Shown: piece by piece, positions 12,661 through 37,988 of the stretch
How the letters are laid out: the number at the start of each line of letters is the position of its first letter
Position numbering within the stretch: the stretch's first letter is position 1
Translations under genes and position numbers: made by a program
From: Octopus sinensis
Lineage: Eukaryota
DNA: 64,000 nt
Assembly (NCBI RefSeq): GCF_006345805.1
Contig: NC_042998.1
Span: 188,790,001-188,854,000, forward strand
Direction of reading: 5' to 3'
The notes under the pieces: model-generated
Seen by the model: the letters and a program-made list of their open reading frames with translations, nothing else
What the model was told of the DNA's origin: nothing
The model's database searches: none

Positions 12661-13069
12661 GCAAACAACGACAGAAACAAATGGAAAACAACGCAAGTAA
12701 CATAAAGTAACATAAAGAATGACCTCTCATCAGTTGTCCGCAAATCCCAAATTTTATTTTGGTTTGCGGGAGCAACTGCCTTTCGAAGCCTCATATTGTC
12801 GTTAAATGCTCGAAATGAGGAGTAGATGGACAGCCGACAACTGATGAGGGGTCGTTCATTATGTTACTTGCGTTGCTTTCCATTTGTTTCTCTCCTTTTT
12901 TCTCTCCTTGTTTCTCTCCTCGTTTTTTTTTTCTGTGTCCCTTTCTATAGAAGAGCGTAGGCTGGAAACGTAAGAGACTTTTTCTATTTTTGAGCGTTAT
13001 ACTAATACATCTGTTTGTTTTGTACACCACCTATCTTCGTCTTTTATTTTTTTTTTCGTAACTCTCCCT
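12661..13069 (+). mobile_element. Repeat family E: PLE-like terminal repeat with 5' inverted segment and hammerhead-like motif
   Basis: Inverted arms at 12673-12738 and 12836-12891; hammerhead-like motif at 12941-12976. The 3' part is repeated in reverse at 60684-60870 and ends in (TA)n. Confidence 0.75.
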
Positions 13070-35375: not shown

Positions 35376-35580
35376 TGTGACCGCGTGTGTACCGTTGGCG
35401 ATTTTTTTCCTCTGTCTTCCCTTCTCTGGATCTTTCCTTCTCCTATGTTTCCGACAAAGAGCTCCGCTCGAAACGTTAAACCCTCCTTCTCTTCTTCTTT
35501 CCTGAGCGTCCAATAATAATATATTTGTTCCACGTCCTCGCGTTGTTGCGTTTTTTTGTGCTTTCATGTTTGGATTAACT
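35376..35580 (+). mobile_element. Repeat family D, copy 2; hammerhead-like motif at 35447-35481
   Basis: Highly similar to 28091-28290. Confidence 0.82.
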
Positions 35581-36010
35581 TTATATACATACATATATAT
35601 ATCCACAGCACACGCACTAAGACACACGTGTCAATGTGCACATACCTAGATCCAACAATACACACCAGGCACACAGACATGTACTAAATTCTTCCATTTA
35701 TAACGACTATACACATTACAGCCACGTTTCACTCCGTACACCACACAATAACACTATTCACTCTACATATTACACACGCACACATTCATGCATGCACGCA
35801 TCACATTACACATACCGCACAATAAACCCACAGAACCGGGGACACACACTTCGACGAGACATGCGCATACATACAGAATACCGGATACCATACTCACTGA
35901 CACACACGAGCATCTAATCTGCATACACACAGGCAACATATACTCACAATATACACAAAACATTCATGCAAAGGACATATACATAACGTTTTTCATACAC
36001 AATGCATACA

Positions 36011-36168
36011 AGGAGTGGCTGTGTGGTAAGTAGCTTGCTAACCAACCACATGGTTCCGGGTTCAGTCCCACTGCGTGGCATCTTGGGCAAGTGTCTTCTG
36101 CTATAGCCCCGGGCCGACCAATGCCTTGTGAGTGGATTTGGTAGACGGAAAGTGAAAGAAGCCTGTCG

Positions 36169-36172
<4 letters not shown>
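36011..36172 (+). mobile_element. SINE family B, 5' half of an interrupted copy
   Basis: Runs from the head to gaagcctgtcgtatata, then (TA)n. Confidence 0.9.
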
Positions 36173-36219
<47 letters not shown>

Positions 36220-36220
<1 letters not shown>

Positions 36221-36553
36221 GAACTTATATATGACTTTAGAAATCTGTTTAATTATCTACATTACTTCATGAGTATAGCCTCAAACACTAGGATGTCTAG
36301 AGAACTTACATGTATTTTAGCTGATGAGTACGGGACTCGTTTATATGCTGTAATCTTTGCAACTTTTAATAAAACCTGTCCTTGTATGAAACGATCGTAC
36401 TAAAAACCTATCCATTCTTGTTGCTTCTTTCTCGCTTATAATCACCCCACATTACTGTATTGTTAAATCAGTATAGTTTTTTTTGGTGCATCTAAGTTAG
36501 GTACCATATTCAAGTAAATTTTTTAAATTAACTTGAATCTTTATTGCTCTTTT
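36220..36553 (+). mobile_element. ~330 bp hammerhead-containing insertion in the (TA)n tract of a SINE B
   Basis: Unique sequence bounded by (TA)n on both sides, between the collinear 5' and 3' halves of a family B SINE. Intact copies have only microsatellite here. Confidence 0.7.
36315..36405 (+). ncRNA. Type I hammerhead ribozyme, canonical core
   Basis: Stem I TTTTAG(36315-20)/CTAAAA(36400-05); core CTGATGA 36321-27; stem II GTACGGGAC(36328-36)/GTCCTTGTAT(36378-87); GAAA 36388-91; palindromic stem III ACGATCGT; GUA cleavage triplet at 36397-99. Confidence 0.85.
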
Positions 36554-36574
<21 letters not shown>

Positions 36575-36584
<10 letters not shown>

Positions 36585-36799
36585 GTGTTTGTTTGTCTGT
36601 GTTTGTCCCCCTAGCATTGCTTGACAACCGATGCTGGTGTGTTTACGTCCCCATCATTTAGCGATTCGGCAAAAGAGACCGATAGAATAAGTACTGGGCT
36701 TACAAAGAATAAGTTCCGGGGTCGATTTGCTCAACTAAAGGCGGTGCTCCAGCATGGCCGCAGTCAAATGACTGAAACAAGTAAAAGAGTAAAAGAGTA
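36575..36799 (+). mobile_element. SINE family B, 3' half of an interrupted copy
   Basis: Resumes at the (TG)-rich segment, then tttgtccccctagcattgcttgacaaccgatgctgg through to the tail. Confidence 0.9.
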
Positions 36800-37988
36800 T
36801 ACGTATACAAGCTCACCATATACACACACGCGCGCATTTACTCAATATACGCACACATCGCGTCCCGCATATACGCAAGATTCGCTCACCTATTGTCCCC
36901 TTTGCCATCGATCTTTAAGCTATGAAACATCTTTTCTTCTCTCTAAGTCTTTTCATCACCACTCATTTAAATTAACACCATCACATGGAGCTACATGTGC
37001 AATCGTATTCCATGGAATATTTTCGCTTTTTTTCTTCCCTACGTTTTCTTTGGTTTGTAATGAAGAAGAAACACAGTACGAAACATAGAACACTTCATTC
37101 GTCTGTCATCTAGCGTTAAAATATTATAAAATTTATACATCTGTTCTTTGTTTTGTGGTGGACACATCCACAAATACAATATATAAGTATGGGCGTGTGT
37201 GTTTTATAGAAGTGTGTGTGTATGAGTACGTGCGTGTGTGCGTGCGAGAAATTTTATTGATGTTTATTGAAATAGTATAAAAACAAAAAAAGTGTTAGTA
37301 ACAGAAATAAATTTTAAAAATTGGCCCAAAAGAACAAGGAAGTCATCTGTGAAAACAATGGTACCCATATATTTGACCAACACTCAAACAACTCACTAAC
37401 GGAAACATGAGTATGTGGAGAATTGTTACACAATGGAGTGTCTCTACCCTTTAGTTTTTCGAATCTGACAGTTTGTTCGTAATTGGTTCTTCCCAGCCCA
37501 GACCGGTGGAATAATATTTACAAGGGTAACAACACTGAATAATTATCGCCCAAAACATTCCTTATTGCACCAAACATACATGCATATATATATATACGTA
37601 AACTCGCACACATATATACATTTAAACACATAAATCTCACTTGCTCACTCTAATTATCTGTCTCGTGGTATATTTATATGTATGTGTATGTATATGTATA
37701 TACGCGTATATATACTAAATATATAAAGAGAGAGAGAGAGGTATAGCGAGAGTATGTATGTGAAGAAGATAGACAGAAAATTAAATAGCAATACAGACGA
37801 AGAATCTCATGAAATTTCCTTTGAAATAATCTACAAGAATATTAAATGTAATGATAAATTGTGCGATATCTTTTCGAAATAAAGAGTATAGTAATTGATC
37901 TGGCTTAAAAGGAAAATATCAAGTTTCCGCTAAACACATATAGATAAATGCAAATTCACCCTCATATAGCATGATAGGCTACATACCA

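Follow-up and report, generated by a model that had tools for sequence, protein, structure and literature searches.

Which kind of mobile element carries the hammerhead motif that lies between the two halves of a SINE in the genome of Octopus sinensis? The window, by which we mean the whole 64,000-nucleotide stretch of DNA that was analysed, had been read from its letters as holding a complete type I hammerhead in a ~330-bp non-coding unit, and the original prediction took this unit for a non-autonomous element, derived from a retrozyme or from a Penelope-like element (PLE), that targets TA microsatellites. We find that the stretch is very probably the 5'-truncated 3' end of a young coding PLE with Hydra-clade features, inserted in the (TA)n of a SINE, with a pLTR hammerhead that would work as a dimer only and with paired internal priming as its proposed mode of insertion.

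The SINE, which we take to be a tRNA-type octopus SINE, was split by the insertion, as had been proposed. Its halves are collinear and lie 408 nt apart here, compared to 28-78 nt in four other copies in the window, where the same halves are joined by native (TA)n/(TG)n. The apparent target of the element is the SINE's own internal (TA)n. Both SINE halves flank the element at 2 of 60 other insertion sites and the left half is adjacent at 5 of 60, so the SINE is merely one supplier of (TA)n. Sequence on both outer flanks was TA-rich at 55 of the 60 sites, as were 30 of 30 3' flanks, in line with the predicted insertion into (TA)n; target-site duplications are unreadable inside such arrays.

All hammerhead parts named by the original prediction were found in the window copy, in order and in place (Table 1). 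CUGANGA, GAAA and UH occur in sequence with stems I and II, as in a type I hammerhead; stem I of this copy is open-ended and its stem II bears a long arm. Both stems form in a local fold of the 92-nt monomer, with pair probabilities of 0.61-0.86 for stem I and 0.43-0.94 for stem II, while the two intramolecular stem III pairs have a probability of 0.00. Stem III is present as a palindromic dimer only, not as a monomer: with a second copy, the palindrome gives a computed 8-bp duplex of -10.0 kcal/mol. The hammerhead is predicted from these folds to cleave only as a dimer. The canonical G10.1-C11.1 pair at the base of stem II is absent, with G.U instead. A search with Rfam hammerhead models, suggested earlier as a check, returned no hammerhead match at E<=5 or E<=10, and a global fold of positions 36220-36553 (334 nt) was no better than shuffles (z -0.64, 25 of 100 shuffles equal) and lacked the hammerhead. 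The motif is more than chance because it is conserved and covaries in sister subfamilies, and, judged by its sequence, it is evidently real.

Table 1. Features of the element copy and its host SINE, in window coordinates; positions with a plus or minus sign count from the predicted cleavage site.
Feature	Position	Strand	Basis
5' half of host SINE	36006..36168	+	89-96% to four other window copies, all with the same last base ahead of (TA)n
(TA)n, left part of the SINE's native internal microsatellite; apparent insertion target	36169..36219	.	TRF array; uninterrupted SINE copies carry (TA)n here
5'-truncated Hydra-clade-like Penelope copy: 3' end of 3' pLTR, from -178 to long end	36221..36552	+	L161, genome copies
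Type I hammerhead motif	36315..36405	+	sequence, local fold, core kept in sister subfamilies
Hammerhead stem I	36315-36320 / 36400-36405	+	sequence
Hammerhead core CUGAUGA	36321-36327	+	sequence
Stem II region of the hammerhead (60 nt, core to GAAA), with a basal G.U and a long apical arm	36328..36387	+	
Stem II strands	36328-36336 / 36378-36387	+	9 bp, G.U at base, one bulged U
GAAA of hammerhead	36388-36391	+	sequence
Palindromic stem III ACGAUCGU	36391-36398	+	predicted pairing between two ribozyme copies
GUA site of hammerhead	predicted cut after 36399	+	sequence
Short 3' end of the family (~+35 to +41); likely inner start of reverse transcription	36434..36440	+	3' end of 56/111 arms (60 sites), next to (TA)n
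~115-nt tail with three hairpins, to long 3' end	36437..36552	+	fold; 55/111 arms end at long 3' end
Tail hairpins	36454-36477, 36484-36506, 36508-36538	+	fold
(TA)n then (TATG/TG), right part of SINE microsatellite	36553..36575	.	sequence
3' half of host SINE	36576..36800	+	83-94% to other window copies

The element is abundant in its own genome. The 330-nt stretch gave 1351 first-look candidates in 2.72 Gb, and the 40 copies scored were 98-100% identical; assembly error may account for much of the ~1% spread among copies. Exact matches to a 31-mer spanning the ribozyme numbered 812, dispersed and with 406 per strand, against 0 for a control, which bears out the predicted multi-copy nature of the element and disposes of a single-copy origin. 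The matches listed (100 of 812) make up 65 sites: 31 single, 33 diverging pairs and one partial tandem with an inverted arm. If this ratio holds, we estimate that the youngest subfamily has ~500 sites. Neither converging pairs nor short tandems were found among the matches listed, so the search for tandem arrays that had been suggested came out negative at this scope.

The copies show what the stretch belongs to. In an alignment with the 3' end of a coding copy (L161), 330 of 337 columns were identical and the differences were all gaps. All 29 other top copies fetched continue upstream, into element sequence or an inverted arm; ten longer copy stretches lead into reverse transcriptase (RT) and endonuclease frames, and copies reach up to 4.3 kb upstream of the cleavage site. 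The frame of L161 (3998-6838) is open for 947 codons, with only the first codons missing, at an inversion joint. Three loci (L040, L112 and L164) have a pLTR-frame-pLTR arrangement, which in L040 reads 5' pLTR, 55-nt leader, frame, 3' region and 3' pLTR. Two same-strand motifs in L112 set the unit length at 4,552 bp, made up of the leader, a frame of ~950 codons and a 1.66-kb 3' region that ends in the pLTR. The long 3' end of the family lies 55 nt before the ATG, so that the ribozyme and the putative start sites are upstream of the frame. The original prediction was therefore right about a mobile, multi-copy, PLE-derived element and wrong about its being a non-autonomous, retrozyme-like one, as the ~330 bp are the truncated pLTR end of a coding PLE.

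The protein agrees with this assignment. The best fold matches of the L161 protein model (mean pLDDT 75.9, with two Asn-rich stretches disordered) were telomerase RTs (E 1e-8, ranks 1-7), and a TERT-like fold is expected for a PLE. Twenty-four protein relatives at 28-38% identity share DKT-like, YRDD, CxC-C and Y(I/V)G motifs. The element protein has DKT in place of DKG (ADKTG at residues ~123-127) and a CxCX5C linker (CKCRIKSKC), and by eye we saw an endonuclease motif VIY...YIG-R-H with no CxxC between VIY and YIG, i.e. no CCHH. A Pfam search matched neither the RT nor the endonuclease of the element protein to any domain model and found GIY-YIG in one of 25 protein relatives (E 0.001). Since the fold matches shown for the model likewise included no endonuclease structure, the GIY-YIG assignment is drawn from motifs. 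A PDB sequence search gave no match naming the protein, and an Atlas search with it led to unnamed eukaryotic clusters, some with RVT_1 on 16-48% of their members. The only named relative is a predicted ankyrin-repeat protein record of O. sinensis, one piece of which matches 21% of the element protein at 68% identity; this is either a gene-model artefact or a captured exon.

Hydra-clade PLEs are described, in the accessible text of bioRxiv 2021.04.23.441226, by DKT, a CxCX5C linker, no CCHH, (TA)n targets and a pLTR hammerhead. Based on these shared features, we consider the family Hydra-clade-like. As far as the available parts of Craig et al. (2021; PMC8557442) go, it also resembles that clade in its single RT frame with a putative C-terminal endonuclease, in 5' truncation, in partial tandem and inverted copies and in a tail on one end only. 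It departs from the clade in several ways. At ~4.55 kb it is longer than the described Hydra families (1.1-3.0 kb) and lacks their generally short (<3 kb) size; it has Asn-rich inserts and the 1.66-kb 3' region. Its ~950-residue protein with two disordered Asn-rich inserts differs from those of Hydra families, the core and GAAA are 60 nt apart compared to at most 26 in the 25 Hydra hammerheads of the PMC8557442 supplement, and its tail spans ~115-120 nt where 30-40 is usual in the clade. The element had been called possibly uncharacterised in cephalopods. This does not hold for the clade, as the same supplement contains Hydra-1_Obim of Octopus bimaculoides, a hammerhead-bearing element of 2,507 bp that inserts into (TA)n; Hydra-1_Obim differs from the window family in length and hammerhead sequence (PMC8557442). 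Our literature search found no description of the window family in the text available to it, and Repbase, Dfam or the curated O. vulgaris library, which has 31 recently active Penelope-like families without names (PMC13282606), may hold it.

We then examined how the copies end. Arms were analysed at the first 60 of the 65 sites, taken consecutively on contigs C1-C2, with L161 as the reference for positions, counted from the cleavage site. Because these sites were chosen by exact match to the youngest subfamily, the shortest arms are under-represented among them. The 111 arms had two 3' ends only, a short one (~+35..+41, 56 arms) and a long one (~+158, 55 arms), fixed ~115-120 nt apart; two short-class arms and one long-class arm align a few letters short of their class end. 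The tail between the ends holds three hairpins, including the terminal one that had been noted before. Diverging inverted arms occupy 50 of the 60 sites, and each of the 50 pairs combines one long and one short end, in one order in 25+1 cases and in the other in 24. All 55 diverging pairs in other loci, about three of which overlap the first set, were also long plus short. Solo arms occur at 10 sites (six short, four long), each with a different 5' end. Overall, the outermost 5' ends are at -4343 and +124, and 21 of the 111 lie within -200..-160, an interval that holds the only 10-bp palindrome of the last 740 nt. This palindrome is the simpler cause of the hotspot near -180, which may alternatively reflect a transcription start. 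Since 5' ends vary and that of the window copy lies at -178, what was read as a 330-bp element is a single solo long arm truncated at the common hotspot, and ~330 bp do not constitute a unit.

Two fixed ends around three hairpins are most simply explained by two internal start sites of reverse transcription, and the inverted pairs likely record paired internal priming from both ends of a cut. The long end would be an internal RNA position with a few TA-like letters, because full-length copies run on into the leader as GAATATAT. We propose that the GIY-YIG domain, as its motifs suggest, would cut both strands of (TA)n, after which both free DNA ends would act as primers within the element RNA: from one of them reverse transcription would begin at the outer border of the hairpin tail (+158), and from the other at the inner border (+37). 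The two cDNAs would grow towards each other and join, often at short palindromes, to give a diverging long and short pair, and a solo truncated copy such as that in the window would be left when only one arm survives. The 10-bp palindrome TCTTTAAAGA is the truncation hotspot of the family, and the window arm would have ended at its edge, at -178. The strict one-of-each pairing would imply that each DNA end has its own start site, an arrangement that a dimer on one tail would produce. The ribozyme may act on transcripts with two pLTRs, trimming them to unit length, and would likely be uncut or re-ligated in most template RNAs.

How inverted and tandem PLE insertions form, and what the hammerhead does, are named as open questions in the accessible text of three studies (bioRxiv 2021.04.23.441226, PMC11167929, PMC4209133). 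The nearest biochemical counterpart is the purified Poseidon PLE of Anolis carolinensis (PAc; Frangieh et al. 2024, PMC11167929), which, according to the available portion of that paper, cuts and extends both strands and begins synthesis at two sites within the RNA, which delimit the genomic tail; its ribozyme cleavage is protein-assisted and dispensable for priming in vitro. The two start sites, cutting of both strands and AT-rich targets of PAc fit the two fixed ends and diverging arms found here. PAc is from a different PLE clade, and its ribozyme and start sites overlap the frame start, whereas in the window family they lie upstream of the frame (PMC11167929). The strict long and short pairing counted here is, in the part of PMC11167929 available, not quantified for PAc.

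To see how the ribozyme has evolved, we compared subfamilies. Sister subfamilies with as little as ~66% identity in the endonuclease region came from a protein search; 20 regions were fetched, and 14 tail-bearing arms, which are related rows, formed the alignment. The hammerhead core was invariant in all 14; a further copy in L164 has T-to-C at a free core position, and one copy each in L169 and L179 is damaged. The G.U at 10.1-11.1 had been explained as CpG decay of the window copy. We reject this, because the pair is lineage-wide: it is present in 100 of 100 matches listed (of 812) and in 14 of 14 aligned rows. Genome-wide, five matches had a letter other than U at 11.1 (three of them C), all in old subfamilies. 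A literature search on a G10.1.U11.1 pair found nothing. The core and GAAA were 60 nt apart in 15 of 16 motif rows and 59 nt in one, and one-sided changes keep stem II paired across the subfamily rows.

Stem III changed in steps. One of its pairs is A-U, G.U and G-C in 7, 5 and 2 of the 14 rows, respectively, and the palindrome accordingly runs from CAATTG over CGATTG to CGATCG, with dimer pairing kept. Arm-to-arm divergence was 3.63% (10 pairs), 1.57% (16) and 1.14% (62) for these three forms, which orders the series by age, and the CGATCG clade nests in the CGATTG group. The path from A-U through G.U to G-C is the one that would be expected if dimer pairing were selected, and it concerns one base pair only. 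Taken as a whole, the structure is paired in 97.8% of cells, and its covariation score was above 500 of 500 shuffles (14 related rows). Two-sided changes occur in only 4 of 49 pairs, a number that 111 of 500 shuffles reach; stem III contributes one base pair changed twice, and there are others in the first and last tail hairpins. The RNAalifold consensus recovered stem II and two tail hairpins and did not recover stems I and III.

We also looked for a footprint of cleavage in the 5' ends of arms. We examined all 25 matches for the cut site and classed them by eye: 12 had such an end there (0 to -2), compared to 6 loci among 23 matches, all examined, at a same-context control at -13 (one-sided binomial p 0.12), and at least 7 among 43 examined of 127 matches at a control at +11. 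The cleavage site shows no significant excess of arm 5' ends versus the two control sites, with patterns that miss junctions where three or more letters match. Since the majority of arms continue past the cleavage site, templates were uncut or re-ligated. Contigs of four runs guessed as RNA cover 13-29 of 30 bins, contigs being unable to show strand, level, ends or circles.

With the ends and subfamilies in hand, other explanations can be weighed against that of a truncated coding PLE. A non-autonomous ~330-bp retrozyme-like element spreading via small circular RNAs would account for the type I hammerhead with palindromic stem III, for a size like that of animal retrozymes and for the clustering of 5' ends near -180, through which copies of similar size recur. 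Metazoan non-LTR retrozymes (Cervera and de la Pena 2020, PMC7229834), in the text available, share with our family the type I hammerhead, a weak palindromic stem III and a PLE pLTR link. Yet they are 150-450-bp non-coding tandem repeats, each with a hammerhead, that are expressed as circles (PMC7229834; bioRxiv 10.64898/2026.07.22.740005), whereas the window family is dispersed, coding and of variable length. Against a retrozyme also stand the spread of 5' ends from -4343 to +124, the upstream continuation of 29 of 29 other top copies, the rarity of solo arms (10 of 60 sites, 5' ends all different) and the spacing of copies: the matches listed have no short same-strand tandem, and their one same-strand neighbour is 4,552 bp away, which is one unit length. 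Neither a fixed non-coding unit length nor, among the matches listed, short tandems with a hammerhead per unit were found, which largely refutes retrozyme identity, and we consider it extremely improbable. Circles of ~330 nt are unexpected because short tandems are lacking among the matches listed (100 of 812). A different view accepts the PLE and takes the hammerhead for a catalytically dead relic that persists only for its role in a protein-binding or promoter structure. The non-canonical G.U, the 60-nt stem II region, the lack of a monomer stem III and the lack of a significant 5'-end pile-up at the cut site would be consistent with this, as would the low, dimer-dependent activity in vitro of PLE hammerheads, for which circles have been proposed (PMC4209133, available text). 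However, the core letters stay the same between subfamilies with as much as ~1/3 difference in the endonuclease region, and the palindrome was restored after its wobble step. Moreover, most published Hydra hammerheads also have U before GAA (by eye, 17 of 25 families in the part of PMC8557442 available, with 3 as G.U), and, according to the accessible text of PMC7229834, an axolotl hammerhead with U.U at the place of 10.1-11.1 cleaves, and better as a dimer. We therefore regard a dead relic as unlikely.

The origin of the short arm also allows for another explanation, in which it is not primed on RNA: the first cDNA would fold back, copy itself and land on (TA)n by TATA microhomology (+37..+41). 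The short end does coincide with a TATA in the element, and both 5' ends lie within 10 nt of each other at 16 of 49 two-arm sites, several at palindromes. Folding back may explain some of these symmetric cases only. It fails as the sole mechanism because short arms often carry kilobases that are absent from their long partner (e.g., -3296 versus +45 in L099 and -2960 versus -65 in L102). In L099, L100, L081, L102 and L118 some sequence is found in one arm only, which means that neither end is merely a fold-back copy of the other. Six solo arms carry the short end, and 33 of 57 short junctions read CTCGCG/TATA where the element has CTCGCT/TATA, i.e. with a G absent from the template. As a general account of short arms, we judge fold-back copying improbable, and favour priming of both arms on element RNA.

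Paired internal priming could be linked to the ribozyme as follows. The two pLTR hammerheads of a full-length transcript would pair via the palindrome and cut out a 4.55-kb unit that becomes a circle, on which a dimeric RT-endonuclease would prime both tail edges from the cut (TA)n ends, one each. This is a speculative extension to which we give a small chance. If true, it would explain cDNA read-through, partial tandems and the universal long and short inverted insertions, and a young family with a nearly whole open frame would be a direct test system for PLE ribozyme function. A ribozyme is an expected part of PLEs, and the value of the locus lies in the family: it is young, numbers hundreds of insertions that are almost identical, retains a nearly whole open frame and has a very clean signature, a long and a short end in 50/50 and 55/55 inverted pairs. 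The family offers a countable in vivo record fitting paired internal priming and a natural covariation series for the dimer stem, which together make precise predictions for an in vitro assay.

Several smaller observations concern the junctions and variants of the family. The G at short junctions (L071-L130) is recurrent, and is non-templated or slipped; most long ends also finish in G before TATA. Speculatively, the window 5' junction, (TA)n-CG, is the remnant of an aborted short arm. The long arm at L099:3827-3936 is the tail alone (+45..+158) and ends where the short arm starts, as though a single RNA had served both primings. L077, L081, L084 and others represent a variant of the young subfamily whose pLTR region carries a ~29-nt insert, at about -316 relative to the cleavage site; contigs of run X1 show this variant too. 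Near element copies, and outside them, we found a ~558-bp tandem with an inverted part (L037:1-2929) and a ~1.7-kb tandem duplication (L033:462-3847).

Hammerhead-like motifs also occur in other repeats. A second, unrelated (TA)n-ended repeat in L164 (minus strand, near 745) and L180 (6178-6220) bears a compact type I hammerhead motif that is nearly identical at both loci, with stem I CCAC/GTGG, CTGAAGA, a 5-bp stem II and a palindrome-like CGATTG; it is likely another PLE family. In the window, positions 35445-35485 and 12939-12980 contain decayed minimal-hammerhead-like motifs (…GAGC-loop-GCTC-GAAACGT) in two other microsatellite-bounded repeats. An intact CTGACGA core was seen in one locus copy among 13 counted, and these motifs are likely remnants of old PLE pLTRs. 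Positions 12661-12745 and 12830-12900 of the window form an inverted pair.
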